Source: Lachnospiraceae bacterium
GTDB lineage: Bacteria; Bacillota; Clostridia; Lachnospirales; Lachnospiraceae
Assembly: GCA_024403355.1 (NCBI GenBank)
Contig: JAKSRW010000014.1
Coordinates: forward strand, 1-32,000
Direction of reading: 5' to 3'
DNA length: 32,000 nt
In this document: positions 1-29,477 of the stretch, piece after piece
Layout of the letters: each line of letters begins with the position of its first letter
How positions within the stretch are numbered: the stretch's first letter is position 1
Notes under the pieces: model-generated
Told to the model about the DNA's origin: nothing
Database searches by the model: none
What the model saw: only the letters and a program-made list of their open reading frames with translations
Translations under genes and position numbers: made by a program

Positions 1-2492
1 CACTGACAATCGGGGATACATTTACAATGTCAGGAACAGTCAGCGGAAACGGCGGAAAGCTTGAAAAGGTATATATAAACGTATTTAAGACGGATGAAAA
101 CAGTTACAGTAAGATACTCTGCGACAGAAGCGGACTTGGGGCAACCTCGTTCAATCTGAGTAATGTGGGAGCTGTTGTGTCAGGAAAGGATTACTTTGCC
201 AAGGAGGGAACATATACTCTCTATATCCATGCCAAAAATGAAGGTGGAGAAAGTGTAAAGCTTGCAGAGAAAACCATCACAGTTAAGAAGGCAGAGCAAA
301 CTCCTCCGATTGTACCGCCCACTGGAGAGTCAGGAGGAACAACTGTGCCACCTACAGGAGGCTCTAGTGGTATAACTATACCACCTACAGGAGGTTCCGG
401 CGGAATTACTATACCGCCCACAGGAGGTTCTAGTGGAATCGTTATACCTCCTATAGGTGGTGGAACATTTATACCGCCTGTAATTATTGATACCGGAGCT
501 GATAAACCACTCAATGGAACGGAAAACAATATATCGAATAATACAGAAATCGTTGATGACACAAATAATACAGGAAATGTTATAGTAGACAAGCCTGAAA
601 CAGGAAAAAGTGATAAAGAACTTGCGGAAGAAGACAAGCGCAGTCTTGTGTTAGGTTTTTCAGATGGCGACAATGAAAAATCGGTTACAGATAATTTATC
701 ATTGAAGAAAAAAGGTAGCAATGGTTCTGTTATTACATGGAGTTCTAACAATACCGATGTAATATCAAATAAGGGTAAGGTAACCAGAAGCACAATTTAT
801 GTTGGAGTTAAACTTACTGCGACAATAACACATGGAGAGTATTCTTGTGAAAAGACGTTCTCTGTGCTAGTAGTGGCAGCTAAAAAGACCGACCGCGAGC
901 GCGTTGAGGATGATTATGGATTACTGAAAATCAGCTATGCTGACGGAGATTCAAGAAAGAATGTAACTAAAAACCTTACATTACCGACTAAGGGTGTGAA
1001 TGGATCTAAAATCACATGGGAATCAAGTAATAGAAGTATAATTACTGAAAAAGGTGCTGTAACGAGAACTAATACCGATACAAAGGTTACGCTTACTGCT
1101 ACAATATCTTACGGATCTGCAGAAAGTATGACTGACACATTCGTTATAGTAGTTAAGGCAGCAGAAGGAGATCAAAATCTACCTGAAATAACTCCTGTTG
1201 TAGAAAATATTGTTACACCTAATGTTGATTCAAGTGATGATAAAGCTCCGAAGTCATTTAAAATAACTTCGCCTAAGTCGGGATATACACTTAAATCCGG
1301 CGGAAGTGTTGAAATAAAATGGTCAGAGTCAAAGAATGCCTCATATTACAGGGTATCAGTTTATAATAAATCGACCTCAAAGAGAGTAATCAAATCTTCA
1401 AAGATTAAAACAACCTCATATTTGATCGGATATTATGAATTAAAGCTTGATGAAGAGTATTATGTTGTAGTGACTGCCCACAATGATTTTGGTGGAATCA
1501 ACAGTAAAGAGATATCTTTATATACTTCAGAAGAAAGTGAAGAACCTGAGAAACCTGTAGAAAAAATAGGTAAGATTACCGTCTCTTCAAAAGAAGAGAA
1601 TGGGGTATTCACTATTTCAATGTCTTCTGATTTATCGAAGAAGAGCCTGGAAGAGGTTGATCATACCTGGATTAATATCTATGATAAATCGAATAAAAAT
1701 AAGCTTGTTGAGTCACAGAGCATAAAAGGAGCAGCAACTTCAATTAATTCTTCAGTACCGGTTGGTAAATACGGCGTTGAGGTAGTTTATTATGATGCGA
1801 ATAAGAATGTTCTGGCTTCGGGAGATGCATTGATAGAATACAATTTGTCATTGACTGAAGATGAACTGGTGCAGGAAATAGAACTTGGGGAGACAGCTAC
1901 ACTATACGGAACAGTGGCATCGGTAAAAGGCTTGAAGTCAATAAAGGTTGTAATAAAGGACGAGAATGGTAAAAGTGTACATGATGCCGTGACAGTGGAT
2001 TTATCAGGAAAGACAGCCTTCAAGCTTAATGATGAGTTACTGGACAGTAAGCTTAAATTTGACACATTAGAACTAGGAAATCTGATGGTTACTCTGGTTG
2101 TAACTGATGTAAAAGGAAATACCCTGAAGAGAAGTTATCCGTTGTCAGTTATTGATTCAGACCAGAAGATAAATGTTATATGTAAGAGTAGTCAGGAACA
2201 GATTGTTGTATCGTTCCAGCATAACTTAACGCCTAAAAAGGCGAAAACAGTTGACTATGCATGGATTAATATCTACGACAAGGAAGCATCAAGCAGACTG
2301 TTTTTCTCAACGTGTTATATTGGAATTGCAACTAATTTTGACATCTATTTAACTCCCGGTGAATATGGTATAGAGGTTGCATATTATAACAGTAGCAAAA
2401 AAATGGTAGCACGTGGTGAAGCAAGATTTGCTCATAGTTGTGATTATTCATTGGATAATTTAAATAAATTGTTAGACTATACTATTAGTTGA
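1..2492 (+). CDS. 5'-truncated large secreted/cell-surface repeat protein (Pro/Gly linker repeats, two Ig-like modules, FN3-like module, two WINIYDK modules)
   Basis: The reading frame of the 27..2492 ORF stays open back to the window edge (codons from nt 3, no stop), so the gene is probably truncated. It has 11-aa PPTGGSSGITI tandem repeats. Two about 90-aa modules carry LxLPxKGxNGSxITWxSSNxxxIxxKGxVTR, a bacterial Ig-like pattern. An FN3-like block reads EIKWSESKNASYYRVSVYN. Two C-terminal paralogous modules are built around WINIYDK...GxYGxEVxYY. Confidence 0.7.
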   Translation, partial: LTIGDTFTMSGTVSGNGGKLEKVYINVFKTDENSYSKILCDRSGLGATSFNLSNVGAVVSGKDYFAKEGTYTLYIHAKNEGGESVKLAEKTITVKKAEQTPPIVPPTGESGGTTVPPTGGSSGITIPPTGGSGGITIPPTGGSSGIVIPPIGGGTFIPPVIIDTGADKPLNGTENNISNNTEIVDDTNNTGNVIVDKPETGKSDKELAEEDKRSLVLGFSDGDNEKSVTDNLSLKKKGSNGSVITWSSNNTDVISNKGKVTRSTIYVGVKLTATITHGEYSCEKTFSVLVVAAKKTDRERVEDDYGLLKISYADGDSRKNVTKNLTLPTKGVNGSKITWESSNRSIITEKGAVTRTNTDTKVTLTATISYGSAESMTDTFVIVVKAAEGDQNLPEITPVVENIVTPNVDSSDDKAPKSFKITSPKSGYTLKSGGSVEIKWSESKNASYYRVSVYNKSTSKRVIKSSKIKTTSYLIGYYELKLDEEYYVVVTAHNDFGGINSKEISLYTSEESEEPEKPVEKIGKITVSSKEENGVFTISMSSDLSKKSLEEVDHTWINIYDKSNKNKLVESQSIKGAATSINSSVPVGKYGVEVVYYDANKNVLASGDALIEYNLSLTEDELVQEIELGETATLYGTVASVKGLKSIKVVIKDENGKSVHDAVTVDLSGKTAFKLNDELLDSKLKFDTLELGNLMVTLVVTDVKGNTLKRSYPLSVIDSDQKINVICKSSQEQIVVSFQHNLTPKKAKTVDYAWINIYDKEASSRLFFSTCYIGIATNFDIYLTPGEYGIEVAYYNSSKKMVARGEARFAHSCDYSLDNLNKLLDYTIS
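312..482 (+). repeat. 33-bp (11-codon) in-frame tandem repeat, about 5 units, encoding (V/I)PPTGGSSGIT
   Basis: Read directly: VPPTGESGGTT / VPPTGGSSGIT / IPPTGGSGGIT / IPPTGGSSGIV / IPPIGGGTF. The nucleotide units are also near-identical. Confidence 0.85.
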
Positions 2493-2510
2493 AAGGAGTG
2501 CCGATATTAA

Positions 2511-4766
2511 ATGAAAAGTATTAGATTAAAATTGCAGAAAATAATGATTATTCCTATTGTTATTTTAATTCTGATTATTCTGTCGGAAAACAAGGTTCGG
2601 GCCAATATAAATGTTTTTTCACCTTATGAATTAAGGGCGGGAATTAATAGTTGTAATCTTTGGAAAGATGTAACTCGTGGGAACCTAGAAATTAAAAACA
2701 AAGGTGATTTTAGCAATGCGCTGTTAGCTAATCCTGAAATGAAAAATAACATTCAGAAAGTTAAAATAGATAATTTTATCACAGAAATACCTTCAAATGC
2801 TTTTAATTCGTGCAAAAAATTGAAAGAAGTATCATTACCATATAGTGTCGCTGTGATAGGTGCGGGTGCGTTTTCAAATACAGCATTGGAGTCTATAATC
2901 TTGCCTAAAAATTTAAAAACTATAGGTAACTATGCGTTTTCGGGAACGGAAATTAAAGTGATTAATATACCTGAAAATGTAACTAGTATTGGTAATTATG
3001 CATTTTCAAAAACGAATCTTTCAGAAATTTATATACCAGAAAGCGTAACAAGTATAGGTGATTATGCATTTTCTGGAGGTAAACTAAAGAAAGTGTTATT
3101 TATTGGCCAAAATGTTGAAAAAATAGGTAAAGATGTATTTCCGAAAGATGTAAAAATATATGGACTTTCAGGTACAAAAATATGTGAGTATGCAAAGAAA
3201 AACAACCTAGAATTTGTGGATATTTTAGGTGAAATCAATATTAAATATCATCAAAATAAAGAAGAAAAAGAATTGTTTACAGCAATGAGCCTTTCTGATT
3301 TTGTATATCATATTGAACATGCACACATACTAAATCTTGGGGGTAAAATAGATGAGAGTGTGGATGTTGGGCCATATAAAGCATCATATAAACCATTATA
3401 TAACATTTTGAAAAAGGAAAAAACTGTAGGGGAAATTATTCAAGGATGGACAAATGGTATAAAAATTAAAAAGTTAGCCTTTAATGATGATGGTAAGGTT
3501 GATACCATTGCCGGAGCGGATATTCCTATAAATACCTATGGATTTTATGAAAAATATATAAAAAATTATAAATACATTTCAAGTCAGTATGATAGTAATT
3601 CCGGTTTTTGTGGAGCCGCGTTTGAGGGAACTGATGATAAGATATGGATTGTTTATTGTGGAACAGATCCTGCAAACGCACGTGAAATGTATAATGACAT
3701 TGTAAAGGCTGATGCACTGGAGCTGGGATCAATAACTGGTACGCCAGATCAATGTGTACAGGCACTTGAATTCTATAAAAAAATAAAAAAGATCTATGAA
3801 AAAGAAATAATAATAACAGGACATTCGTTGGGTGGAGCTTTAGCGACATATGTATCTGCATTAACAGATGAGCGGTCAATAACAATTAATGGCGCAAATT
3901 GTTTAGTTGTATCTAACTTAATTTTTGGAACACGTAATAAAATATCTGATTATTTATGCAATAATAAGATATTTGACTTTTCGTTAATACCAATAACAAA
4001 AAAGCCATATGAGTGGAATGTAGTTAATTATATGACAAACCCGACAGATAATAATTTTGTTCAAAAACTAATGTGTGGTGAGCTGCTAGGTATAAGGATT
4101 GGTTTATTAGATGGAATCGATGCCAAAATTTATGCATATAATAATAAAGCAAAGGATACGCATAATATATTCTCGTTCTTGTCAATTACAATGGAAGATG
4201 GCAAAATCTATTATGAGATGCCATATTTTACTGTAAAAAAGTATCCCATCAAAGAAGCAAGTACTGGGATGATTTGGGATGGAGGTGGTTATATTTGGAT
4301 TAAAAATAATCAAGATGATAAATCTTGGAAGATATTTATGCAGAACATAGAACTTAATCCGCTTTATTATAAAAATGAGATATTGCGTAACATCGAACAA
4401 ATCGAATGGGGGAATCTGGATTCTTTGGCAAAAAAGATATTGGAACCTATGCCAATACAACTCCTGGATCAGATGATTCGAGCAACGAAAGTAGAAAATA
4501 AAGAAAATTATGTAAAGATTGAAGACATGGATCTAGAGTATGATTGTTATTTGTTAACAAAAAACATAACGTTAACTATAAATGACGATTTCCTAGACAA
4601 TAAAGACAAAGTTATTATTGTGAATGGTGTTGTTGGGACTATTGTTCGAAACGATCAAAAGAAAATGACTACATTGACAATGAATAAGAAAAAACTAATA
4701 GTGCCAACTAACAAATTAAATAAGATTAAAATATATGATAAGAAGGGGCAGTGTAAGATTCCGTAA
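2511..4766 (+). CDS. Secreted/membrane-anchored BspA-type leucine-rich-repeat protein fused to a class-3 lipase-like (Mbeg1/DUF2974-like) alpha/beta-hydrolase domain
   Basis: GGAG-type RBS (aaaggag) 12 nt upstream. N-terminal hydrophobic signal/anchor (IMIIPIVILILIILS). Repeated IPxxVTSIGxYAFSxTxLxxI LRR units. Nucleophile elbow ITGHSLGGALATYVS, preceded by a FEGTDDKIWIVYCGTD strand typical of lipase_3-like hydrolases. Confidence 0.8.
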   Translation: MKSIRLKLQKIMIIPIVILILIILSENKVRANINVFSPYELRAGINSCNLWKDVTRGNLEIKNKGDFSNALLANPEMKNNIQKVKIDNFITEIPSNAFNSCKKLKEVSLPYSVAVIGAGAFSNTALESIILPKNLKTIGNYAFSGTEIKVINIPENVTSIGNYAFSKTNLSEIYIPESVTSIGDYAFSGGKLKKVLFIGQNVEKIGKDVFPKDVKIYGLSGTKICEYAKKNNLEFVDILGEINIKYHQNKEEKELFTAMSLSDFVYHIEHAHILNLGGKIDESVDVGPYKASYKPLYNILKKEKTVGEIIQGWTNGIKIKKLAFNDDGKVDTIAGADIPINTYGFYEKYIKNYKYISSQYDSNSGFCGAAFEGTDDKIWIVYCGTDPANAREMYNDIVKADALELGSITGTPDQCVQALEFYKKIKKIYEKEIIITGHSLGGALATYVSALTDERSITINGANCLVVSNLIFGTRNKISDYLCNNKIFDFSLIPITKKPYEWNVVNYMTNPTDNNFVQKLMCGELLGIRIGLLDGIDAKIYAYNNKAKDTHNIFSFLSITMEDGKIYYEMPYFTVKKYPIKEASTGMIWDGGGYIWIKNNQDDKSWKIFMQNIELNPLYYKNEILRNIEQIEWGNLDSLAKKILEPMPIQLLDQMIRATKVENKENYVKIEDMDLEYDCYLLTKNITLTINDDFLDNKDKVIIVNGVVGTIVRNDQKKMTTLTMNKKKLIVPTNKLNKIKIYDKKGQCKIP

Positions 4767-4926: not shown

Positions 4927-5817
4927 TTGGTTAGGCAACGAAAAACCTTACAGGAATTAACAATTAAAGACAATTTTATGTTTGCGGCGGTAATGCTGGA
5001 GCCGGACAATGCGAAGGGATTACTGGAGCTGGTGCTTGGCATCGAAGTGGACTATGTTGAGATATCCCAGGAGAAAAGCATAGTGTATAACCCTGAGTAC
5101 AGGGGCGTGCGCCTGGATGTTTATATTAAGGATAACAAAGGAACTCACTTCAATGTGGAGATGCAGGCGGTATCACAGCCGCTGGTAAAGCGGGAAAGGT
5201 ATTATCACAGTCAGATGGACATGGAGCTTCTGGTAAGAGGCACCGATTATGAGAATCTGCCGGATGGCTATGTGATATTCATATGTGATTTTGACCCTCT
5301 GAGCATGGGTAAGTATCGGTATAGTATCAGAAAAAGGGTTGATGAAAATCTGGATTATAATTATCCGGATGGAAGTTTTACCATATTTTTGAGTACTGTC
5401 GGAACCAATGAAAATGAGGTGCCGAAGGCACTGGTTAAATTTCTAAAATTTGTAGCTGCAAGACCTGAGTCATCTAATGATGATTTTGACGATAAATATG
5501 TAAAGCAGCTGCAGTATTCTGTAGAGAAAATCAAGACAAGTCGCGATATGGAGGGCCGTTTTATGTTGTTTGAAGAAATGATGAAAAATGAATATAAGGC
5601 AGGCCATGAGGATGGCAAAGCAGAAGGAAAACTCGAGGGAAAACTCGAAGATATTCTCCAGCTTCTGAATGCCAGATTCACTGTACCCGACACACTTCCG
5701 GAGAGAATCAGTAGGATTACTGATGAAAATGTTTTATCAAAGCTTCATATAGATGCTGCTGTTTCAGCATCGATTGAGGATTTTGAGCGTGAGCTTGATA
5801 AACATCTCTCTTTTTAA
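4927..5817 (+). CDS. Rpn family recombination-promoting nuclease / putative transposase (PD-(D/E)XK, YhgA-like)
   Basis: TTG start 9 nt after AAGGAGGA. The N-terminus LTIKDNFMFAAVM plus the RLDVYIKDNKGTHFNVEMQ core is characteristic of the PD-(D/E)XK transposase-like family. Confidence 0.8.
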   Translation: MVRQRKTLQELTIKDNFMFAAVMLEPDNAKGLLELVLGIEVDYVEISQEKSIVYNPEYRGVRLDVYIKDNKGTHFNVEMQAVSQPLVKRERYYHSQMDMELLVRGTDYENLPDGYVIFICDFDPLSMGKYRYSIRKRVDENLDYNYPDGSFTIFLSTVGTNENEVPKALVKFLKFVAARPESSNDDFDDKYVKQLQYSVEKIKTSRDMEGRFMLFEEMMKNEYKAGHEDGKAEGKLEGKLEDILQLLNARFTVPDTLPERISRITDENVLSKLHIDAAVSASIEDFERELDKHLSF

Positions 5818-5985: not shown

Positions 5986-7350
5986 TTAAATATCCGCAAT
6001 AAAAGGTGTAATAAGAATGATGATCATGAATACCGGGCAGACATATTTGATCATGACATTATAGAGCTTCTCGGCCTTGAAATTCGTTTCCCCGATGAGC
6101 ACCTCATCCGCAATATACTTGGTTTTTGCGACATAACCGATGAGGATACAGGTTAGGAACGCAACGATGGGCATCAGCATATTGTTCGAAATAAAGTCGA
6201 AGAAATCGAGAATCTGGTAACCGAAGATGGTCACATCTTCCCAGATGCTGTAGCCGAATACTGAAAATGAGCCCATCACAAAAAGGAAGACAAGGCAGAT
6301 AATTGTCGCTACCACACGCTTCAGCTTGAACTTTTCACTAATGATGGAAACCATGGTTTCAAGCAGTGAAATAGATGATGTAAGCGCTGCGAGAGCTACA
6401 AGCACGAAGAAAAGGCTTCCGATAATCTGACCGCCTTGCATTGAATTGAATACGTTGGGCAGTGTGATGAACATAAGGCTGGGACCCTTGTTGAGCGCAG
6501 CGGGGTCGCCGCCACTGAAAACAAATACGCTCGGAACGATAATCAGGCCGGCGAGGATGGCGATTGCGGTATCGAAAATCTCGATGTTTCGAACTGACTT
6601 TTCGATAGAGTCTTCCTTACGCATGTAGGAGCCGTAGGTAACCATGATACCCATGGCGATGGACATTGAATAGAAAAGCTGTCCGACCGCACCGGCGAGG
6701 GTTTTGGGCAGGTCTGAGAACGAGAAGGTCTCGAAATCAGGAATGAAGTAATACTTGAAGCCTGCACCCGCATCGGGAAGGGTCATGGTGTAAATTGCGA
6801 TACCGATAATGAGAAGGATAAGCAGGGGCATCAGGATTTTACTGATGTTCTCGATTCCCTTCTGAACGCCCAGAATAACGACCAGGGCGGTAAGGATAGC
6901 AAATATAATAAAGAATATCATCGGGGAACCGACTGTTCCGATAAAGCCTGTAAAATACTCACCCTTATCTGCGGCGGTCGAACCATTGCCGGTAACAAAC
7001 ACTGTGAGATACTTAAGTACCCAGCCGCCGATTACACAGTAGTAGGGGGTGATGATGAAGGGAACGACTGCGGCTACGGGGCCGAGGAAGCCGAAACGTC
7101 TATCTGCATCCTTGTAGGCACCGATTACACTTTTGCCTGTTTTACGGCCTAAGGAAACCTCTGTAATCATCAGAGCGAAGCCGAAGGTGCAGGCCAGAAT
7201 TAAATATACCAGAAGGAAAATTCCTCCGCCGTATTTTGCGGCCAAATACGGGAAACGCCAAATGTTACCAAGTCCTACAGCCGAACCGGCTGCGGCAAGT
7301 ATGAAGCCCATACGGCTTCCGAAGCTGTCTTTTTTATTTGAATGACTCAT
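5986..7350 (-). CDS. Sodium-dependent transporter, neurotransmitter:sodium symporter (NSS/SNF) family
   Basis: GLGNIWRFPYLAAKYGGG signature and a multi-TM profile. I place the start at the ATG at 7350 (MSHSNKK), preceded by GGAGG, rather than at the upstream ORF-track start at 7407. Confidence 0.9.
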   Translation of the reverse strand: MSHSNKKDSFGSRMGFILAAAGSAVGLGNIWRFPYLAAKYGGGIFLLVYLILACTFGFALMITEVSLGRKTGKSVIGAYKDADRRFGFLGPVAAVVPFIITPYYCVIGGWVLKYLTVFVTGNGSTAADKGEYFTGFIGTVGSPMIFFIIFAILTALVVILGVQKGIENISKILMPLLILLIIGIAIYTMTLPDAGAGFKYYFIPDFETFSFSDLPKTLAGAVGQLFYSMSIAMGIMVTYGSYMRKEDSIEKSVRNIEIFDTAIAILAGLIIVPSVFVFSGGDPAALNKGPSLMFITLPNVFNSMQGGQIIGSLFFVLVALAALTSSISLLETMVSIISEKFKLKRVVATIICLVFLFVMGSFSVFGYSIWEDVTIFGYQILDFFDFISNNMLMPIVAFLTCILIGYVAKTKYIADEVLIGETNFKAEKLYNVMIKYVCPVFMIIILITPFIADI

Positions 7351-7391
7351 AAATAACCTCCGTGTCAGGAATGTAACGAATAGTAGCCGTC

Positions 7392-7434
7392 TTTTAACGA
7401 GTAACAAGCGAAGCGGTTACAAGTTTTGAATCCG
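7392..7434 (+). repeat. Dispersed intergenic repeat, copy R1 (module with GTAAC...GTTAC hairpin)
   Basis: ttttaacgagtaacaagcgaagcggttacaagttttgaatccgg is closely similar to 10530-10590 and partly similar to 7690-7738. Confidence 0.7.
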
Positions 7435-7774: not shown

Positions 7775-10402
7775 ATGAAACTGTTCGGAAAAATTTCAGT
7801 GCTTTTGTTTGCCATGGTATGCGCCGTAATGTGCGTATTTACTGTGCAGGCGGAGGCGAAGTCAGACAGCATCGGCTGGGATATGAGTAAAAACCGGATC
7901 GGGAATTCAAATGTTAAGGTTTCCCTCGATGAGACGGTGAAATATCCCGGTGCCGAGAATTCGATTAAGGTAGTTAATGACGACTATTACTGTGTAGCAG
8001 TTACAAATACTTTCAAGGTAACTCCCGGCAAGTATTACGTTGCTTCGGCCTGGGTAAAGTATGAGGGCTATAAGCTTCATCCGGATAAAATCAGTGATTC
8101 GGGTGCACATATCGGAATTCCCGGAACCTTTGCCGGTTCAGCTACCTATTACGGTTCTGAATGGAAAAAGCATGAATTTGTATTCAAGGCCGGCAGTGAG
8201 GGCAGCATTGATATAGCGCTTTGGAACGGACATTATGGTGCGGAGTGCAAGGGAACCGCATATTTCTGTGATTTTAAGGTTGAGGAATATCAGCCCGGTA
8301 ATGTGGATGATAAAAATGTTCTTGTAAAAAGATTAGAGGCAAAGACTGCAATTCCCGGAAATATTATTTCAAGAATGGATGATAATTATTCGGGTATACC
8401 CGTGACCTTTGAGTTCTGGGGTGAGGATGGTCTTTACAGGGTAGCCTATTGTGACGCAGTAAATGTCTATATCGATATCCTTGATAAGGAGCTTAACAGA
8501 AGCAAAACCATAAAGGTTAAGAAGGAATATGACAAGCTTGGAAGTGTCACAATAGATAAAAAGGGTAATTATTACATTGTATATGGTAATGATGATACAG
8601 ACGAAAAGGGTGACGTCCCTGTAATTTCGGTGGTAAAATATTCTGCTTCGGGTAAAAAGCTCGGAAGGACTGATTTTACAGGCAGGGACAGTAACTGGAA
8701 CGATAAAGAGCTTAACTTTGGAACAAGGGTGCCCTTCAGCCACTCAAACTGTGACACTGTAATTGATGAAAACGGAGTGCTTGTGGTTCGTTACGGCAGA
8801 ACGATGTATAACGGACATCAGTCAAGCTATGCTCATTATGTTGATACAAAAACCATGGAAAAGCTGGAGCTTCCCAGCCCATACATCAGCCATTCCTTTA
8901 ACCAGAAGGTAATCGTCACTGAGGACGGCAGCTATTTAATGGCTGAAAAAGGAGATGCCTTTGAAAGAGGTATCACTATTTCAAAGGTTTACAAAAAGGA
9001 TGACGGCAGCTGGATACAGATTTCGTTCACTCCCTTCCACTTCAGAAGCGGTGCATTTTATCAAAAGGTATATGCGACAATAGCAGGTATCGAGGAATTA
9101 TCAAACGGATATGCACTTGCAGGAACTTCAGTAAAGACTCTCTCCTGTAAGGTGCCTGTGGAAAATGATGCTGATGATCTCGAAGCGAGAAACCTCTTTA
9201 TACAGATATTTAAGAAGGATTTTAGCTCCGAGGATACCGGAAAGAAGGACGTTCATCTCTTAAAGGGCAGCACCAGAAAGGCCACAGATACAGAATTTGC
9301 AGGAAGCTCTGAGCATGGCTGTCAGCCCGGAGACATTGACTATGGTGTTTTATGGATCACAAATTATAAGGATGATGAGTACGCATCTGTACCTAAATTA
9401 ATCAAGCTTAATTCAAAGCAGCTGATGCTTCTCTGGGAGAAGAAAGCTCATAAGCATGGCAAGTATTGTATCGATGATACATATATCAGCACATATTACT
9501 GTATCGTATCAAAGGATGGCGAGTTTATTAAAAAGCCTACCGAGATTCCCGGGCTGAGAATTTCCGAATATACCGAGCCTGCTTATAAGGATGGCTATGT
9601 ATACCTTGTTTCCGTACCCGATTATACCGGAGCATATGGCTATGAAGAGGGCGATAAGTGCGAGTATATCATAAGTAAGATTAGGGTTGAAATCCCTGAA
9701 ACTGAGGCTGTTGCACCCAAGGCAGTAAGCAAGCTGAGCGTCAGCGAAGGCCCCAAGGACTATGCAAAGCTCAGCTGGACGGATGAGGGCGATGCAGATA
9801 AGTACGTTATTTACCGCAAAAGCTCAGCGGGCGGAAAATACAAGAAGATCGGAAGCACAACAGTCTGGTCTTTTAAGGATACGACAAAGCTTACGCAGGG
9901 CAGGACTTATTATTATAAGGTTAAGGCTGTTTATAATACCGGTAAATCAGTCACATCAAAGGCTGTGACCTTTGTTCCGAAGGAAATTAAATGGGATAAT
10001 ACGGTAAGCTATACTGGCGGTGTAAATGTATCTGTCGACAGAAAGGTTAAGTACGGCAGCAGTAAATATTCGATAAAGATTATTAATACGGACTACGAGT
10101 GCGGCTATGTAGAAAAGACCTTTGATGTGAAGCCGAATTCGACCTATAAGGCGACAGTTATGGTTAAGGTTGATGGTTATAAGCTTCAGCCCGGAAAATA
10201 CTATGATTCAGGTGCAGGAATTGGTGCACCCGACCAGTACAGTGTTGCAAATTCCTACAGCTCTGACTGGAAAAAGCTTGAATATGTAATTAAGACAGGC
10301 AGTGAAAAGAAGATTTCAATCGCGCTTTGGAACGGTATGTTCGGAGCGGACTGCAAGGGCACGGCATATTTCAGTGGTTTTAAGCTTACTGAAGTGAAAT
10401 GA
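7775..10402 (+). CDS. Secreted multidomain protein: N- and C-terminal paralogous jelly-roll (CBM-like) domains, central beta-rich region, FN3-like module
   Basis: RBS aggagag. Signal peptide MKLFGKISVLLFAMVCAVMCVFTVQAEA. The N-terminal block (aa 35-170) is repeated at the C-terminus (aa 735-875). Shared strings include VKYxxxxxSIKxxNxDY, VKxxGYKL, SxWKKxEx, IALWNGxxGAxCKGTAYF. FN3-like block: AKLSWTDEGDADKYVIYRK...GRTYYYKVKAVY. Confidence 0.75.
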   Translation: MKLFGKISVLLFAMVCAVMCVFTVQAEAKSDSIGWDMSKNRIGNSNVKVSLDETVKYPGAENSIKVVNDDYYCVAVTNTFKVTPGKYYVASAWVKYEGYKLHPDKISDSGAHIGIPGTFAGSATYYGSEWKKHEFVFKAGSEGSIDIALWNGHYGAECKGTAYFCDFKVEEYQPGNVDDKNVLVKRLEAKTAIPGNIISRMDDNYSGIPVTFEFWGEDGLYRVAYCDAVNVYIDILDKELNRSKTIKVKKEYDKLGSVTIDKKGNYYIVYGNDDTDEKGDVPVISVVKYSASGKKLGRTDFTGRDSNWNDKELNFGTRVPFSHSNCDTVIDENGVLVVRYGRTMYNGHQSSYAHYVDTKTMEKLELPSPYISHSFNQKVIVTEDGSYLMAEKGDAFERGITISKVYKKDDGSWIQISFTPFHFRSGAFYQKVYATIAGIEELSNGYALAGTSVKTLSCKVPVENDADDLEARNLFIQIFKKDFSSEDTGKKDVHLLKGSTRKATDTEFAGSSEHGCQPGDIDYGVLWITNYKDDEYASVPKLIKLNSKQLMLLWEKKAHKHGKYCIDDTYISTYYCIVSKDGEFIKKPTEIPGLRISEYTEPAYKDGYVYLVSVPDYTGAYGYEEGDKCEYIISKIRVEIPETEAVAPKAVSKLSVSEGPKDYAKLSWTDEGDADKYVIYRKSSAGGKYKKIGSTTVWSFKDTTKLTQGRTYYYKVKAVYNTGKSVTSKAVTFVPKEIKWDNTVSYTGGVNVSVDRKVKYGSSKYSIKIINTDYECGYVEKTFDVKPNSTYKATVMVKVDGYKLQPGKYYDSGAGIGAPDQYSVANSYSSDWKKLEYVIKTGSEKKISIALWNGMFGADCKGTAYFSGFKLTEVK

Positions 10403-10596: not shown

Positions 10597-11475
10597 ATGG
10601 ATATTAGTATGGTCGAAAAGAAAAAGAAAGGAAAAGGGAAAACCGTCTTTATAATCGTTTGGATTGCGCTGATAGCGGGGCTTCTGGCGGCGATTTTTCT
10701 GCTGGGGCTGCCGGAAGGTGAGAGCGAGAGCATAAAGGTTATAATGAAGGACGGGGTTCTGCATGAAACGAACCGGATAAGCCTGTTCGGACTGATTGAG
10801 GTCAATCCGGGACTGATTTCCGCATATGTTGTGACGGCGGTACTTCTGCTGGCGGCAATTTTAATCAGGATATTTGCCATACCTAAATTCAAATATACGC
10901 CCGGAAAATTCCAGATTGTGATAGAAAAAGCAGTAGAATTTTTCTCGGACATGGCAAAAACAAACAGCCCACACAAAACGGGCTTCGTAGCAGCATATAT
11001 ATTCAGCGCGGGTGCATACATATTTTTCAGTACACTTTTTGAGCTGATAGGAATGCAGTGGATTACCACAAAGGGCAATCCCATAGCGCTTCCGGCACCG
11101 CTTGCGGATATTAATGCGGCGATAGCGATGGGTGTAATGTCATACGTAGTTATACTCGGGGCAGGCATTATTTCGAACGGAATTAAGGGCGGACTGAGGG
11201 TCCTGAAGGATTTTTCACTTCCGATTTCGATGAGCTTCCGTCTCTTCGGTGCTCTTTTGAGCGGTCTGCTGGTCACTGAGCTGGTATATTATTTTGTATC
11301 ACTCAGCTTCGTGCTTCCGGTAATTGTGGGCGTGCTTTTTACAATTTTGCATGCACTGATTCAGACATACGTGCTGGCGACACTTGTTTCCACCTTCTAC
11401 GGTGAGGCGGTAGAGCCGCCAAAGCCCAAGGAAGCAAAGGCCTCTGAAGCAGATGAAAATGCTGAAAAGAGCTAG
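10597..11475 (+). CDS. atpB: F-type ATP synthase subunit a (divergent)
   Basis: Multi-TM protein with the essential Arg motif in the form SFRLFGALLSG, and IQTYVLATLVSTFY in the last helix. It is the first gene of an a-c-b-alpha-gamma-beta-epsilon cluster. The ATG at 10609 is an alternative start. Confidence 0.8.
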   Translation: MDISMVEKKKKGKGKTVFIIVWIALIAGLLAAIFLLGLPEGESESIKVIMKDGVLHETNRISLFGLIEVNPGLISAYVVTAVLLLAAILIRIFAIPKFKYTPGKFQIVIEKAVEFFSDMAKTNSPHKTGFVAAYIFSAGAYIFFSTLFELIGMQWITTKGNPIALPAPLADINAAIAMGVMSYVVILGAGIISNGIKGGLRVLKDFSLPISMSFRLFGALLSGLLVTELVYYFVSLSFVLPVIVGVLFTILHALIQTYVLATLVSTFYGEAVEPPKPKEAKASEADENAEKS

Positions 11476-11596
11476 TCTTTGCAAAGAGCAGACCAGTCTT
11501 AAAGCATTTTCGCTCTTAGCATGAGGCTGGGGATGAAAAATATTTTTAGATAAATAAGTGCCCGTGCTCCAAACTATGTGCTGCGGGTAGAAAGGG

Positions 11597-11983
11597 ATGG
11601 TTATTATGAAATTAGTTAAGAAATTTTCAGTTTTATTGGTTCTTTTGATGGTTATGACAATTGGTTTTACATTTACCGCAAAGGCTGTTGCGGCAGATGA
11701 GGATGCGGTAGTTACCGCAGAGGCTGCAGAGGCAGCGGAGGCTGAGGCAGAGGATGGTTCAAAGGGCAGCAAGGCTATTGCGGCAGCTATCGTAGTAGGT
11801 CTTGCGGCAGCAGCCGGTGCACTCGGTATGGGTATTGCGGTAGGAAAAAGTACAGAGAGCATGTCGCGTCAGCCCGAGGCAGCCGGAAAGATTAATTCCT
11901 CGATGATGCTCGGCCTGGTATTTATCGAGACAGCTATTATTTATGCACTTATCATTGCGATTCTGATTATTTTCGTATTGTAA
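11597..11983 (+). CDS. atpE: F-type ATP synthase subunit c with an N-terminal signal-peptide-like extension and acidic tail
   Basis: The C-terminal 75 aa form a classic c hairpin (GALGMGIAVGK...SRQPE...LGLVFIETAIIYALI). The N-terminal 50 aa read KLVKKFSVLLVLLMVMTIGFTFTAKA, then VAADEDAVVTAEAAEAAEAEAED. The start could be 11597 or 11606. Confidence 0.8.
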   Translation: MVIMKLVKKFSVLLVLLMVMTIGFTFTAKAVAADEDAVVTAEAAEAAEAEAEDGSKGSKAIAAAIVVGLAAAAGALGMGIAVGKSTESMSRQPEAAGKINSSMMLGLVFIETAIIYALIIAILIIFVL

Positions 11984-12041
11984 TGTAAACAGCTTATTTA
12001 GCAGATTGTTCTGACTATTTACATCAGAAAAGAGGGAAAAT

Positions 12042-12539
12042 ATGCCGTTAAATATTGATCTTGTGCAGATTTTACTGCACATGCTGAATTTTGTAATACT
12101 TGCCGGCGGACTCACGCTTATCCTTTTTAAGCCTGTGAGTAAGTTTCTGGCAGAGCGCAGGGAGTATTTTGAGAAGCTCGAGAAGGAACATGCCGAAATG
12201 TCTGAGGAAAACGCGAAGATGAAGGCTGAATATGAGCAGAAGATGGAGGAGACAAAGGCAGAGATTAGCGAGCTTCGCAAGCAGTCCGAAAAGGAGGCTG
12301 CGGACGCGGCAAAGGCCTATATTGATGCGGCTAAGGAGCAGGCTGCCAATATTATTAAGACTGCCGAAAAGGACGCCGAGGACAGAAGAAGCCATATTCT
12401 GGATTCTGCCCAGACCGAAATCAGCGAGCTGGTAATCGAGGCAACCCAGAAGCTTCTCAGCGAGACCGCTTCTGCGGAGCGCAGCCGTGCACTTTATGAC
12501 GAATTCATTGTAAATGCTGAAAAGGATACGAAGAAATAA
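12042..12539 (+). CDS. atpF: F-type ATP synthase subunit b
   Basis: RBS agaggga. One N-terminal TM helix followed by a long charged coiled-coil rich in E, K and A. Its position lies between c and alpha. Confidence 0.8.
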   Translation: MPLNIDLVQILLHMLNFVILAGGLTLILFKPVSKFLAERREYFEKLEKEHAEMSEENAKMKAEYEQKMEETKAEISELRKQSEKEAADAAKAYIDAAKEQAANIIKTAEKDAEDRRSHILDSAQTEISELVIEATQKLLSETASAERSRALYDEFIVNAEKDTKK

Positions 12540-12571
12540 GCATTTTACCGAGAAAGATGTGGTTATAAATC

Positions 12572-14362
12572 ATGATAAATGAGGATGTTTTTGATAAAGA
12601 GGATGAAGTCGTTCAGGAAAATGTCCTGAAGGTGGAAATTCGTTGCATGATTCCGCCGAATGATGAGCAGAAGGAGAAAATCCGCGAATTTATGCTCAGC
12701 AAATACAAGGCGGACAAGGTGGAAATTGTGATTCACAAGGACCCTGCGGCGGCTGACGGCTTCAATATTTTCGTAGGTGACGATAACTACGACTGGACAA
12801 CACTGGGACGTATCAGACAGCTCAGAAAGTCCATTCAGGCACTTCCAAAGGAAAAGAGCTTTGACAATATTATTTCGCTGCTCCGTGAGGATATCAGGAA
12901 TTTCAAGCTTACACCCGGCTATCAGCAGGTGGGAGAGGTGCTTTTCGTAGGTGATGGAATTGCGGTAATCGATGGCCTTCATGATGTGGCCTACGGTGAA
13001 ATAGTGCTCTTTGACTGCGGTGTAAAGGGCATGGTGCAGGACATCAGAACCGACGGAACTACAGGTATCGTTCTTTTTGGCGATGCGACAGATATTGTGG
13101 CCGGTTCGCGTGTGGTCAGAACAAGGCGTACCGCAGGTATTCCCATCAGCAACAGAATTCTGGGCCGAATGATCGACCCTCTGGGAAAGCCTATTGACGG
13201 CGGCGAGGATATTGATGCAAAGGAATACTTCCCGATTGAGCGCCCGGCCCCCGGGATTATTGAACGTAAATCGGTTAACAGGCCCATGGAAACGGGCATT
13301 CTGGCTATAGATTCGATGTTCCCCATCGGACGCGGGCAGCGTGAGCTCATCATCGGTGACCGTCAGACAGGCAAAACCTCTATCGCGATTGATACAATTC
13401 TGAACCAGAAGGGCAAGGATGTGGTCTGCGTATATGTGGCAATCAGCCAGAAGGCGAGCTCTGTGGCGAAGGTGGTTAATACTCTTGAAAAGGCCGGTGC
13501 GATGGAATACACGGTTGTTGTCTCGTCGCCTGCGAGCGATGCACCGTCCCTGCAGTATATTGCCCCTTATGCGGGCTGTGCCGTTGCGGAGTACTTTATG
13601 TATCACGGACGCGATACGCTTATTATATACGATGACCTTTCAAAGCATGCGGTGGCCTACCGAACCATAAGCCTTCTGCTCGAGCGTGCACCCGGCCGTG
13701 AGGCTTATCCGGGAGATGTATTCTACCTGCATTCGCGACTGCTGGAACGTTCCGCGCAGCTTTCGGACGAGCTGGGCGGCGGCAGTATGACGGCCCTTCC
13801 CATTGTAGAAACACAGGCGGGTGATGTTTCGGCATACATCCCTACAAATATTATTTCGATTACGGACGGACAGATTTTCCTAGATAATGAGATGTTCTAT
13901 TCGGGTCAGCGGCCCGCGGTAAATGTAGGTCTTTCGGTATCACGAGTGGGCGGCGCGGCGCAGCTGAATCTGATGAAGAAATCGGTAGGCACCATTCGTC
14001 TGGACCTTGCACAGTACCGTGAAATGCAGGTATTTGCGCAGTTCAGCAGTGACCTTGACGAACAGACTATGATCCCTTTGAAATACGGTGCGGGACTTAT
14101 GCAGATTTTGAAGCAGCCGAACCAGGCACCTCTTTCCTTCTGGCAGCAGGTTGTAATACTGAATGTTGCGCAGGCAAGGAAATTCTTAAATATTGAAGCA
14201 AAAAAGATTCCGGCCCTCAAGAAGGAATTTCTGGAATGGTTCGCCCTTGAACAGCATGCTCTTTGTCTGAAAATAGAGCACACAGCGACCTATTCGGACG
14301 AACTGAAGGTAGAGATTCTGAAGGCCGCAGACGAATTTTTTGAGACACACGTAACTGAGTAA
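12572..14362 (+). CDS. atpA: F-type ATP synthase alpha subunit with an N-terminal domain resembling the delta (OSCP) C-terminal domain
   Basis: Residues from about 96 onward are canonical alpha ([17 protein letters not shown], Walker [12 protein letters not shown]). Residues 1-95 ([70 protein letters not shown]) match the pattern of the delta C-terminal domain. No separate atpH ORF lies between atpF and this gene. Confidence 0.8.
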
Positions 14363-14410
14363 GACCACCCCTGACCCCCATCGCCCCACCACAAAATCAA
14401 AGGAGGAACT

Positions 14411-16748
<2,338 letters not shown>

Positions 16749-16804
16749 AAAAGGCGCACCAATCTACTCCATGAGCAACTCATTACATTCGTTGCATTAG
16801 GAGG

Positions 16805-16840
16805 AAGTTTGAAATAAATTTCAAACTATGAGATTGGTGC
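16805..16840 (+). repeat. Direct repeat copy B in the beta-epsilon spacer
   Basis: See copy A. The string gagcaactcatt is also duplicated (16773-16784 and 16844-16855). Confidence 0.85.
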
Positions 16841-16870
16841 GAAGAGCAACTCATTGCACCAAAAGAAAAA

Positions 16871-17311
16871 ATGAAGGAAGGCAGATTAGTGAACAGCTTT
16901 AAATTGTCAATTTTATCGATGGATAAGCCATTTTATGTGGGTGACTGCGTCTCGCTTGTAGTACCTGTGAGCGACGGAATGCTGGGTATACAGGCCAATC
17001 ATCCTCCCATGACGGCTGCGGTACGGGCGGGAATTGTATCGTTTACACTTCCGGACGGTACACGCAGGGAGTGCGTGGTATCCCGCGGCATAGTCGATAT
17101 TTCTAAAAATGATCCGCGAATTCTTTGTGAAACAGTAATGGATCCCGATGAGGTCGATGAGGAAATGGCCAGACGTGCCCTCGAGGAGGCTCAGATAGCC
17201 CTCGATGAAGAAAAAGGCCGCAAGGACTACATCATTTCCCAGCAGGCATTTGCGAACGCATTTAACAGTCTTAAGGTAAAACAGCACCGTGCCATGAAGA
17301 CCAATAACTGA
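16871..17311 (+). CDS. atpC: F-type ATP synthase epsilon subunit
   Basis: Beta-sandwich N-domain pattern (LSILSMDKPFYVGDCVSLVVPVSDGMLGIQANHPPM) plus a helical C-domain. GTG at 16889 is the more likely start, lying 7 nt after AAGGAAGG. Confidence 0.8.
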   Translation: MKEGRLVNSFKLSILSMDKPFYVGDCVSLVVPVSDGMLGIQANHPPMTAAVRAGIVSFTLPDGTRRECVVSRGIVDISKNDPRILCETVMDPDEVDEEMARRALEEAQIALDEEKGRKDYIISQQAFANAFNSLKVKQHRAMKTNN

Positions 17312-22528: not shown

Positions 22529-22654
22529 GTAATTTTCATTAATTTAGTACTCGGAAGCCGTATAAGCCGGCAAAGCCTGCGCTCGCAGACTTATTCGGGT
22601 GAAGTTAATAAATGTGGAAACTTGGTTCTAAGAGTTGTATTTTTGGAGAAATCT

Positions 22655-25135
22655 ATGGAGCAGGAAATTGTAAAATATGATGCTTTCATCAGCTACAGAC
22701 ATTCGGAGCTCGACAGATATGTGGCAATGACCATACAAAAGAGGCTTGAGGGCTTCAGGCTTCCAAAGAACTTTTCAAAGAAACGGGAGGGTGGCAGAAA
22801 TGTCATCTCCCGTATTTTTCGTGACCAGGATGAGCTGTCGCTGGCGGATAATCTGGCTGAGCCTCTTGCTCTGGCGCTTGAAAATTCCGATTTCCTGATT
22901 GTAATAAGCACACCGAGATATCCGCAGTCAGACTGGTGTCTGCAGGAGATTGAGAATTTCCTGAAAAATCACGACATGGACCATGTTCTTGTGGTACTGG
23001 CTGAGGGTGAGCCTGATGAGTCCTTCCCTGAAATTCTGACCTATCGTGACGTCGAAATAACCGATGATAACGGAAATGTCAGAATCGAGCGTAAAAGCAT
23101 GGAGCCGCTTGCGGCAGATGTGAGGGGCGCGGACAAACGTGAGATTAATAAAAAGATGGACGATGCCGTTTTGAGAATTGCGGCGGCCATGTTCGGTGTT
23201 TCCTTTGACAGTCTCAAGCAGCGCCACCGTGAGCAGCGAATGAGGCGAATGATTGCCTTTTTTGGCAGTGTGGCGGCGGTATTACTCATTTTTTCAATCG
23301 TCTGTTTTGCCCTTCTTACAAAAATCAATGACCAGAAAAGCATTATTTCCGAGCAGTATCGTGACATTCAGCTGAGATATGCCAATTCGATGGTAAATGC
23401 CTCGCAGCAGCTTATGTCAGCGGGGCGAAGGAAGGATGCGGTATATCTGGTAAATAAGGTCCTGCCGGAGAATCCCGTGGATGAGACCATTCCCTACAGT
23501 GCTGAGGCAGAGCGTGCTCTGGCGTCGGCTCTGGAGCTTTATGATCGCAGGAACGGTTTTTCGGTAAAGGGAAGCGTAGATGCCGAATCAGGTGTATCTG
23601 AGCTGACAGCTTCGGCTTCCGGCCGATATTTAGCATTTGCTTCGCAGGACGGAAATATTGTCATTTACGATATGATAGCGGAAAAAGAGGTCGGCAGAAC
23701 CGGGCTTTCCGGCAGCTATACCCAGCTGATTTATCTGAGCTTCATGGGGGAAGACAAGCTGTTTTTCTTTGAAAACGGCGAGGTTCACCGCTATGATATT
23801 TTAAGCGGCAGGGACGAACTGCTCTATCGTGGGGAGAACTGCTCTGTATATCTGTCAGAGGAGGGTAAGGTCTTTGCTGTATGGGAAGATAATATTTTAC
23901 GTATCTTTGATCTAAATAATAAAGAAATCTTCTCAGGGGATTTTATGGAGCAGCTGGCCGAATATGCGGGCAGGGAGCTTGAAATTGCGGCTGCATCCTG
24001 CTCACATTCCGGAAAGACGCTTACTCTTGCACTTTCACCCTACGGCGGCGGGGCAAGCGTGCTGATTTCTGTGGATTTAATAAATTCCGAAGAAGTATTT
24101 TTTGACATATACACGATAAATGCAAATGTCTGTATCGCCAATAGCGATGATATGATATACTTTGTCGTTTACAACGGATATACGCCGGACACCATGTTTG
24201 CAAATGTATACGGTATCAGCTTTGCAACAGGCCAGCCCCTTTGGGCATCATCCGTTTACAATGATGTATTCACAAGGATTGACTACATTGAGGATGCCGG
24301 CAGGGAATACGTGGTCACGGCCGGTGACAAGCGTGTGTCCCTGTATACTGCCGACGACGGCCAGCGACTGTGCGATGAACTGACTTCAGAGCTGATTATC
24401 TCAATGAACAGAACGCAGGCAGGTGACGCTGTTATGTTTTCGTTAAAGAACGGCGGTGTTTTAAAGCTTGACGCGAGTGCAGTGATTGTTGATTATTCGC
24501 TGAATTACTTTAATTACTCTATGTCGAATGTGCTGGACTATTGCAGGGTTTATGACAATTGCGTTGTGGCGCATATTCTCTATTCGGATTATGTCTACTA
24601 TATGACCCGCTATGATACGCCCGGCTATAAGCTTCTTCCGGATATGTCGGACAACAGCCACAGTTATCCTTACAGGGACAATTCAGAACTGATTAAGGAG
24701 CTTGGAATAGACGGTTCAAATATCAGCGCTTCCCTGGAATCCGAGGACGGAAAGCTTTTTATAACAGAGCTTTCAAACGGAGAATTATCCGTATACTCAA
24801 TCGAAGGTAAAAGGCTTCTGAACACGATTTACGGAAGCTATTCGCTTATGAGAAGGCTGATTTACTGCAGTGAAATCGACAAATATTTATTGATTAAGTC
24901 AAAAAGCAGCCTGCTTTTGAATTCCGACGGTGAAGTAGTTGCTGAGCTGCAGGATGTATATGATTACTGCGTGAACGGCGTACCCGGCTTTGTAATGAAG
25001 GAGGCTCAGACCGGCGAGGAGAGCAGCTTCTACTTTGCACCCTATGTGACCTACGAGCAGCTGATAGCCACTGCAAAAAGCTATCTGGGCGACTACGAGC
25101 CCTCACAGAAGATTAGAAAACGCTACGGAATATAA
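22655..25135 (+). CDS. TIR domain protein with a single TM helix and a large C-terminal WD40-like beta-propeller region
   Basis: Start ATG 22655 lies after GGAGA. TIR box 1 is KYDAFISY. The SDWCLQEIENF helix carries the conserved Glu (codon 22946-22948). A KQRHREQRMRR stretch precedes the TM helix MIAFFGSVAAVLLIFSIVCFALL (about 23249-23320). Repeated SxDGxxLAxxxxDGxIxIYD-type blades follow. Confidence 0.8.
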   Translation: MEQEIVKYDAFISYRHSELDRYVAMTIQKRLEGFRLPKNFSKKREGGRNVISRIFRDQDELSLADNLAEPLALALENSDFLIVISTPRYPQSDWCLQEIENFLKNHDMDHVLVVLAEGEPDESFPEILTYRDVEITDDNGNVRIERKSMEPLAADVRGADKREINKKMDDAVLRIAAAMFGVSFDSLKQRHREQRMRRMIAFFGSVAAVLLIFSIVCFALLTKINDQKSIISEQYRDIQLRYANSMVNASQQLMSAGRRKDAVYLVNKVLPENPVDETIPYSAEAERALASALELYDRRNGFSVKGSVDAESGVSELTASASGRYLAFASQDGNIVIYDMIAEKEVGRTGLSGSYTQLIYLSFMGEDKLFFFENGEVHRYDILSGRDELLYRGENCSVYLSEEGKVFAVWEDNILRIFDLNNKEIFSGDFMEQLAEYAGRELEIAAASCSHSGKTLTLALSPYGGGASVLISVDLINSEEVFFDIYTINANVCIANSDDMIYFVVYNGYTPDTMFANVYGISFATGQPLWASSVYNDVFTRIDYIEDAGREYVVTAGDKRVSLYTADDGQRLCDELTSELIISMNRTQAGDAVMFSLKNGGVLKLDASAVIVDYSLNYFNYSMSNVLDYCRVYDNCVVAHILYSDYVYYMTRYDTPGYKLLPDMSDNSHSYPYRDNSELIKELGIDGSNISASLESEDGKLFITELSNGELSVYSIEGKRLLNTIYGSYSLMRRLIYCSEIDKYLLIKSKSSLLLNSDGEVVAELQDVYDYCVNGVPGFVMKEAQTGEESSFYFAPYVTYEQLIATAKSYLGDYEPSQKIRKRYGI

Positions 25136-28897: not shown

Positions 28898-29020
28898 TTT
28901 TTTCTCCTTTCAAGAAATGAAAAATAATATACAAAAAAAAGTATAGCAGATACTGCAAAATAATAAATACCTAAAAGTATTAAATAAATATAGTTTTTGG
29001 CAGATATTAATTAAATCAGA

Positions 29021-29062
29021 TAAAAACAGCGTGTGAAAAATGATTTCTCAGTCTTCACACGC
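29021..29062 (-). terminator. Intrinsic terminator after atp operon 2
   Basis: On the minus strand: gcgtgtgaa...ttcacacgc followed by tgttttta. Confidence 0.7.
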
Positions 29063-29075
29063 CAAATCATTGTTA

Positions 29076-29477
29076 TCAGTCTTTTACACTCAGACGAACA
29101 AGGGCACGGTTAAGCTTTGCAGTTGCAATACGGAATTCTTTTTCATCAATATTGGCCTGTGCAAGACGTGCTTCTGCTCTTTCTTTTGCGGAAAGTGCAC
29201 GCTCCTTGTCAATGTCTTCCTTCCACTCCCATGTAGTAGCAAGAAGATGGCAGGTACCATCCATAACGCTCAGCATACCGCCGATGCAGGCTGCTGTACG
29301 TCTGGTTCCGTCCTCCAGCTGAATATATGCCTCGCCCATACCGAGAGCGGTGCAATAATTACAATGACCTGCAAGAATTGCGAGGTCGCCGGTGACGGTC
29401 CTGCATTTGATTCTCTCTACATTACCTGAGAAGAGCAGACCATCCGGTGTTGCTATTTGTAACGGAAAAACGTTCAT
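29076..29477 (-). CDS. atpC: F-type ATP synthase epsilon subunit (operon 2)
   Basis: RBS aaaggag. The PLQIATPDGLLFSG...GDLAILAGH pattern is canonical. Confidence 0.9.
   Translation of the reverse strand: MNVFPLQIATPDGLLFSGNVERIKCRTVTGDLAILAGHCNYCTALGMGEAYIQLEDGTRRTAACIGGMLSVMDGTCHLLATTWEWKEDIDKERALSAKERAEARLAQANIDEKEFRIATAKLNRALVRLSVKD

Follow-up and report, generated by a model that had tools for sequence, protein, structure and literature searches.

The window analysed here, a 32,000-nucleotide stretch of contig JAKSRW010000014.1 from a Lachnospiraceae bacterium, encodes an F-type ATP synthase in which the delta subunit (OSCP) has its C-terminal domain joined in frame to a complete alpha subunit, while delta's N-terminal domain is absent. 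The fused subunit, deltaΔN-alpha, is the product of a single open reading frame (ORF) of 596 amino acids (aa) at 12572-14362 on the forward strand. The fusion is genuine, conserved over a large clade and under purifying selection. By analogy with an engineered enzyme of the same design, we lean, at slightly better than even confidence, toward a natural multi-stalk, H+-coupled enzyme with a high ion/ATP ratio, which would operate beside a canonical Na+ enzyme.

For a long time, c-ring size was considered the sole determinant of how many ions ATP synthase uses per ATP. Work from 2025 showed that this ion/ATP ratio can also be multiplied through stalk and a-subunit number (PMC12229609). In that study, Ueno et al. 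(Nat Commun 2025, PMC12229609) engineered a deltaΔN-alpha fusion in Bacillus PS3 (PDB 9jc1), with delta residues 105-178 joined by a short linker to the N-terminus of alpha and the delta N-domain deleted. The content of a increased 2.2-fold and that of b 1.8-fold, and cryo-electron microscopy revealed as many as three b2 stalks, with a separate a-subunit bound to each. The proton-motive force at equilibrium was halved, with an H+/ATP ratio of 5.8 vs 3.0. The authors concluded that the delta N-domain, located on the pseudo-threefold axis, limits normal enzymes to one stalk (PMC12229609). They also pointed out a natural delta-alpha fusion without the delta N-domain in the Acidaminococcus fermentans atp operon (UniProt D2RLW6; Discussion and Supplementary Fig. 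9) along with two further natural entries (G4Q3K6 and A0A1I2C5T3), and regarded natural multi-stalk enzymes as "highly likely", pending experiments (PMC12229609). The fusion type is, hence, already known, and the view of an earlier reading of the same DNA (the original prediction) that it was undescribed does not hold. The window adds a natural case of the engineered design. Our literature search found no follow-up of the 2025 paper on natural multi-stalk enzymes or the Acidaminococcus fusions, and nothing relevant on OSCP in Lachnospiraceae or on delta gene fusion in Firmicutes; a 2017 survey treats only the b/delta fusion.

Domain content and fold of the fused subunit

The fusion ORF starts 32 nucleotides (nt) after the end of atpF (12042-12539). 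The original prediction had placed both genes exactly and had ascribed the first ~95 residues of the fused protein to the delta C-terminal domain, an assignment borne out by the profile and the fold comparisons described below. The N-terminal tail (residues 1-17, 12572-12622) is variable and acidic in family alignments and has low pLDDT values; some relatives have a tail extended by 40-60 aa. It is followed by the delta C-terminal domain (residues 18-90, 12623-12841), the b-binding module, which is supported by profile, fold and the ratio of nonsynonymous to synonymous substitution rates (dN/dS). The junction LPKEKS (residues 91-96, 12842-12859) links the last delta helix to the first alpha helix. 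The remaining residues 97-596 (12860-14362) form a complete F1 alpha, with its N-terminal helix, beta-barrel, nucleotide-binding domain and C-terminal domain.

Profile searches can assign both parts of the protein separately. Positions 99-171 of the 172 positions of the Pfam OSCP profile PF00213 match fusion residues 15-87. Searched alone, as had been suggested earlier, the first 100 residues score 35.1 bits (E 1.8e-8), above the gathering cut-off of 22.3. No match in the fusion protein was found for profile positions 1-98, which represent the delta N-terminal bundle, and the delta model TIGR01145 reaches 27.9 bits, below its cut-off of 57.5. The NCBIfam atpA model TIGR00962 aligns its positions 4-501 with fusion residues 97-593 at 698.7 bits (cut-off 484.45), so that a canonical alpha follows the module directly, as predicted; the alpha part is also matched by Pfam PF02874, PF00006 and PF00306. 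A delta N-domain hidden by a frameshift between atpF and the fusion is not present, because the gap measures only 32 nt and has stops in all three frames. Likewise, the earlier statement that the delta N-terminal bundle has no counterpart in the operon is upheld by this short gap, by the mere 17 residues ahead of the C-domain and by the unmatched first part of PF00213.

The fold of the module agrees with the profile assignment. A full-length AlphaFold model of the fusion was poor (mean pLDDT 57, shallow alignment) and was left out of the fold search, for which we used an AlphaFold model of 140 residues built on 33 diverse family members. Here, pLDDT is ~90 across fusion residues 20-70. The module adopts the topology beta(18-25), alpha(31-45), beta(49-56), beta(64-68), beta(71-74), alpha(77-89), which is the four-stranded sheet with two helices of the C-terminal alpha/beta domain of delta/OSCP. 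Comparison of the model of residues 18-90 with the PDB by Foldseek returned delta/OSCP C-domains for all of the top 43 matches, each with probability 1.00, and with alignments spanning 68-83 columns. Bacterial, chloroplast and mitochondrial enzymes are among them.

A profile of the delta module, when compared with PDB sequences, matched free delta subunits and chain I of 9jc1. The latter, labelled "ATP synthase delta subunit, ATP synthase subunit alpha" (580 aa, three chains), is also the best PDB match of fusion residues 1-189 in a phmmer search. The alignment pairs fusion residues 28-186 with residues 13-171 of the engineered chain and is collinear over both parts, with one single-residue gap located at the junction, where the natural stretch aligns with the designed IRRQLIGGSGGSIRAEEISAL of 9jc1. 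The two junctions are, hence, equal in length to within one residue. Both proteins carry the delta C-domain on the alpha N-terminus without a delta N-domain, and the engineered construct, too, has no free delta. In contrast to the window protein, the PS3 fusion is man-made, Bacillus-derived and accompanied by a truncated epsilon, and stalk number and ion ratio were measured there. The window protein is natural, shares ~20-25% identity with it in the delta part, bears the 17-aa N-terminal tail and belongs to an operon whose a, c and gamma subunits have unusual termini.

Several natural enzymes offer further points of comparison. The A. fermentans fusion is likewise encoded in a natural atp operon, combines delta lacking its N-domain with alpha, and was predicted by its authors to be multi-stalk. 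A. fermentans belongs to the Negativicutes, whereas the family of the window protein extends over 106 or more species of uncultured Clostridia from gut and rumen, which form a large clade. A co-resident canonical Na+-type operon is present beside the window fusion and is unreported for that of A. fermentans. The fused design is not confined to one Negativicute: this large clade has fixed it and keeps it under selection.

The F1Fo of Chloroflexus aurantiacus has been solved with two natural stalks and two a-subunits (delta2 b4 a2); its free delta forms a dimer on the axis by means of a shortened N-domain of four helices (PMC12002316). It is thus a natural F-type enzyme whose altered delta allows b2 stalks and a-subunits to assemble in more than one copy. 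Among the PDB matches to the sequence profile of the window module, its delta C-domain ranks first. Unlike in Chloroflexus, the window module lacks the N-domain and is covalently attached to alpha, offering three sites instead of two, and its operon encodes neither a free delta nor a delta N-domain. The mycobacterial b-delta fusion (for instance PDB 7jg5) also features a covalent delta fusion in the peripheral-stalk connection, with a structurally similar delta C-domain. There, however, delta resides on b, retains its N-domain and occurs in one copy per enzyme, whereas the window operon has a separate b of 165 aa that matches ATP-synt_B only and places the delta C-domain on alpha, in three copies. 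What the window operon does share with a deltaΔN-alpha FoF1 is the presence of the delta C-domain and alpha in one ORF, the loss of the delta N-domain and of atpH, and an otherwise full set of a, c, b, gamma, beta and epsilon.

Conservation of the fusion and the search for a short alpha

The 120 closest homologues of the fusion protein (72-100% identity) are 584-641 aa long, with P0032 as the single exception. For most of them PF00213 and the three alpha domains are on record, and the named ones are annotated as "F0F1 ATP synthase subunit alpha" from metagenome-assembled genomes of Lachnospiraceae, Clostridia or Eubacteriales. P0032 (832 aa) was considered as a larger fusion and rejected, being a mis-assembled duplicated canonical alpha. 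A genome scan detected the module in at least 106 species-representative genomes, all of them uncultured gut or rumen Clostridia.

We fetched 80 related loci, 45 of which are complete. All complete loci display the gene order a-c-b-fusion-gamma-beta-epsilon. Across the 70 loci with atpF and a full-length fusion gene, the distance between the two genes varies from -83 to +66 nt (median -4), therefore leaving no room for atpH. Pairwise comparison of 85 gene pairs gave a dN/dS of ~0.09 for the delta module vs 0.045 for the alpha body, and one family motif in the module is nearly invariant across the aligned relatives.

In principle, the long ORF could stem from a frameshift in the assembly, from loss of a stop codon or from decay of the operon into pseudogenes. 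Such an artefact might be suspected, as the related sequences all derive from metagenome-assembled genomes and many entries in databases are fragmentary, with a frameshift in their tails. Nevertheless, the same in-frame architecture recurs in the genomes of at least 106 species from many independent studies, all seven genes of the operon are intact, the module evolves under the constraint given above, and a delta N-domain would find no room. To the extent that sequence can decide, artefact or decay is refuted, and we attach a negligible probability to it. Since the fusion is conserved in more than 100 species, the assembly frameshift that the original prediction had raised as a worry is excluded.

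The number of modules per enzyme depends on whether a short alpha is made in addition to the fused one. An in-frame ATG with a Shine-Dalgarno (SD)-like motif near the junction occurs in only 1 of 79 family genes, and family alignments reveal no conserved Met in the junction. The sole candidate for an internal start in the window gene is a GTG at fusion residue 120, which lies inside the beta-barrel and lacks an SD. Internal initiation as a source of short alpha was consequently rejected. With no conserved internal start, every alpha chain should carry the module, which results in three modules per alpha3beta3 head, in line with the original prediction. A mixed enzyme, in which one long alpha and two short ones (from internal initiation or proteolysis) restore a delta:alpha ratio of 1:3, appears improbable to us in view of these junction data. 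What speaks for it is that nine relatives keep an internal beta start in their gamma-beta fusions (described below), so that the clade may, by analogy, use nested translation.

Ion coupling, the second operon and stalk number

The fusion gene is part of an operon on the forward strand (operon 1, 10597-17311, 6.7 kb) with the order a-c-b-fusion-gamma-beta-epsilon and without any extra gene. Its c subunit is encoded by atpE (11597-11983, 128 aa), with a match to Pfam ATP-synt_C at residues 61-124. The ion site reads GM...IETAIIY, in which Met occupies position Q/E32 and Ala occupies position T67; both residues are conserved in 64 relatives that we aligned with the c subunits of operon 2 (see below) and I. 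tartaricus. The enzyme of operon 1 is probably H+-coupled, because its c subunit is devoid of two Na+ ligands. The c site of operon 2, GIGEG...AETTGIY, comprises the full set of Na+ ligands with a second carboxylate, and the corresponding enzyme is predicted to be Na+-coupled. Both assignments apply the standard rules for Na+ sites known from the c-rings of I. tartaricus and F. nucleatum.

Operon 2, overlooked in the original prediction, is a canonical F-type operon that begins in the window at 29076-32000 on the minus strand, ~12 kb from the fusion operon and in convergent orientation. Within the window it encodes epsilon (29076-29477; TIGR01216, 85.9 bits), beta (29498-30889, 463 aa; TIGR01039, 830.8 bits), gamma (30914-31771, 285 aa; TIGR01146, 282 bits) and the C-terminal end of alpha (31789-32000), which continues past the window. 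Two contigs with an identical operon 2 gamma, L081 and L082, share 99.5-99.6% DNA identity with window positions 28977-32000 and contain the whole operon in the order atpZ-atpI-a-c-b-delta-alpha-gamma-beta-epsilon (5395-12274 in L081). The subunits there measure 254 (a), 91 (c), 176 (b), 179 (delta, a full OSCP) and 509 aa (alpha), and a gene of the Na+/H+-antiporter family is located upstream. These contigs place a free 179-aa delta ~1.6 kb past the right end of the window. The claim that there is no free delta is thus valid for operon 1, but not for the genome. Of the refuting case named in the original prediction, a full-length delta encoded elsewhere that assembles with this enzyme, the first half is thereby borne out.

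Operons 1 and 2 share 57% identity in alpha, 68% in beta, 32% in gamma and 43% in c, with lower values in a (24%), b (26%) and the delta C-domain (22%). The two enzyme sets are old paralogues. In the 80 related loci, the ±10 kb around the fusion gene contained neither a second operon nor a free delta.

The presence of a full-length delta in the same genome raises the question of a hybrid assembly, in which this delta would cap the alpha3beta3 of operon 1 in trans, leaving a single stalk and an accessory fused module. The N-terminal helix of alpha, the usual binder of the delta N-domain, is still conserved in the fusion family, which speaks for such an arrangement. However, in the engineered enzyme this helix packs canonically against b2 and the delta C-domain fused to it (PMC12229609), and this packing accounts for its conservation. 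The low identities between the two old enzyme sets (alpha 57%, b 26%, delta C-domain 22%) and the lack of a second operon linked within ±10 kb in the 80 relatives also speak against hybrids, which we judge very unlikely.

We therefore return to the multi-stalk enzyme. Since each of the three alphas has its module, three identical stalk-docking modules are present per alpha3beta3 head. It follows directly from the missing delta N-domain that the pseudo-threefold axis, which normally limits the enzyme to one stalk, is left unoccupied. Delta is reduced to its b-binding C-domain and tethered via the ~6-residue junction to every alpha N-terminus. In the mechanism that we propose, more than one b2 stalk would then be recruited, each with its own a-subunit, as in the PS3 enzyme. 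Several a-subunits would let more ions pass per turn of the c-ring and thereby multiply the ion/ATP ratio. Such an enzyme might serve as a low gear, either synthesising ATP at a low ion-motive force or, where the gradient is smaller, pumping more ions with each ATP against it. The H+ enzyme of operon 1 would work beside the separate canonical Na+-type F1Fo with its own full-length delta, encoded ~12 kb away.

Several points weigh against this picture. The stalk number of the natural enzyme is taken purely by analogy, and even in the engineered PS3 enzyme three-stalk particles are rare, with an average of about two stalks (PMC12229609). An additional N-terminal helix is present in the natural a subunit. 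Moreover, the distinction between H+ and Na+ follows motif rules taken from the literature, and in the 80 relatives a second canonical operon is missing from the ±10 kb surveyed.

The main rival is an enzyme with a single stalk. Here, as in the original prediction, the covalent link merely replaces the non-covalent contact between the delta N-domain and alpha, one module binds b2 while two stay idle, and the ion/ATP ratio is ordinary. Operon 1 has one a gene and one b gene, as do ordinary operons, the extra helix of a might crowd the c-ring, and many particles of the engineered enzyme possess one or two stalks (PMC12229609). On the other hand, the fusion alone sufficed in that enzyme to bring in extra b2 and a, with the average a and b content and the H+/ATP ratio doubled. 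The three modules are, furthermore, identical, so no feature of the sequence restricts binding to one of them. Sequence does not discriminate between this enzyme with its idle modules and a multi-stalk one; we regard the single stalk as possible, though clearly short of an even chance.

A bolder version of the multi-stalk enzyme can be put forward only tentatively. It would be a three-stalk, three-a F-type ATPase with approximately triple H+/ATP, acting as a low gear beside the canonical Na+ F-ATPase, so that one cell would run two rotary enzymes with different ions and gear ratios. The design would be widespread, occurring in hundreds of species of Clostridia from gut and rumen, and, the F1 axis being uncapped, a subclade would tether gamma to beta by a flexible linker while still making free beta. 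We hold this version in its entirety to be doubtful.

The coexistence of the fused enzyme with a canonical Na+-type one points to a division of labour, in ion and in gear, in energy-limited fermenters. As operon 1 is complete and compact within 6.7 kb, it provides a ready test case for natural three-stalk ATP synthases.

Other subunits, related architectures and further genes of the window

The remaining subunits of operon 1 display several features at their termini. The a subunit (atpB, 10597-11475, 292 aa) matches Pfam ATP-synt_A at residues 80-267 with 67.8 bits and retains the essential Arg in MSFRLFGA. Ahead of the matched region, residues 1-78 (10597-10830) consist of a lysine-rich start and the extra hydrophobic helix. 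This extension could affect how many a-subunits fit around the c-ring. The c subunit starts with an extension of ~60 aa (residues 1-60, 11597-11775), composed of a signal-peptide-like hydrophobic helix ending in AKA and the acidic AEAAEAAEAEAEDG; the acidic stretch includes AEAAEAEAE and is followed by a normal hairpin. Accordingly long c subunits of 114-154 aa are conserved in the 64 relatives, compared with 91 aa for the c of operon 2.

The single b gene, atpF, gives 52 bits with Pfam ATP-synt_B. Gamma (atpG, 14411-15322, 303 aa) is covered by TIGR01146 at residues 1-288, and its gene overlaps with atpD in an ATGA. Past the end of the model, residues 289-303 (15275-15322) form a basic C-terminal tail of 15 residues, which coincides with the point at which gamma and beta become fused in relatives. 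Beta (atpD, 15319-16725, 468 aa) scores 783 bits with TIGR01039. A 145-nt untranslated gap (16726-16870) separates it from epsilon, while the two genes are adjacent or overlapping in most relatives. Epsilon (atpC, 16871-17311, 146 aa) matches Pfam ATP-synt_DE_N and ATP-synt_DE.

Membership of operon 1 in the N-ATPases, or alternate F1Fo enzymes (TIGR03324 and related models), was considered and rejected on scores and gene order. All subunits compared remain below the "alt_F1F0" cut-offs, with 580.5 bits of the required 750.5 for alpha, 586.9 of 752 for beta, 79.8 of 282 for gamma, 34.1 of 130.9 for c and 37.5 of 224.7 for b. The operon follows the canonical order a-c-b-alpha-gamma-beta-epsilon, whereas N-ATPases have atpDCQRBEFAG without delta.

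In 9 of the 80 related species, gamma and beta, thus a rotor and a stator subunit, are encoded by a single ORF of 776-831 aa (L003 3866-6196, L013 5995-8403, L019 5920-8415, L021 7596-9956, L023 9469-11859, L026 11879-14371, L029 11876-14260, L037 2077-4443 and L050 6073-8472). The two parts are separated by 27-78 residues, mainly a variable low-complexity linker. All nine fusions keep an in-frame ATG at the usual start of beta with a purine-rich, SD-like sequence upstream; this ATG lies 18-20 codons ahead of GPVVDV in eight of them and 28 codons in one. Free beta could, hence, still be produced from these genes. A rotor-stator tether would need a swivelling linker, which may be feasible only with the uncapped F1 axis of deltaΔN enzymes.

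Searching 1.84 billion representative proteins with the delta-module profile yielded 650 matches. They include several more divergent deltaΔN::alpha families, such as that of P0255 (595 aa), and a free delta sharing the EYDWS motif (P0165). A profile of the divergent fusions retrieved 506 proteins at E <=1e-10, with Christensenellales, Lawsonibacter and Oscillospiraceae among the named sources; Acidaminococcus is not named among the listed matches of these searches. The deltaΔN::alpha architecture is, to judge from these matches, much more common than the three literature entries suggest.

We also observed full-length delta::alpha fusions with a short N-domain of ~85 aa (P0162 and P0214), as well as deltas with an N-domain and tandem C-domains, three in P0202 (364 aa) and two in P0169 (255 aa). 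Both forms may represent other routes to several b-binding sites, or evolutionary intermediates.

Outside the two operons, the window harbors an 837-aa protein (22622-25135, forward strand) with an N-terminal TIR domain followed by WD40/beta-propeller-like repeats, which may be an anti-phage defence or NADase-type gene. Large surface-type proteins (27-4766, 7775-10402 and 26876-28897) with atrophied immunoglobulin, BspA-type leucine-rich repeat and fn3/CBM features are also present, together with a PD-(D/E)XK family transposase (4927-5817). Finally, a transporter of the sodium:neurotransmitter-symporter family (5986-7407) is consistent with a Na+ economy of the organism.

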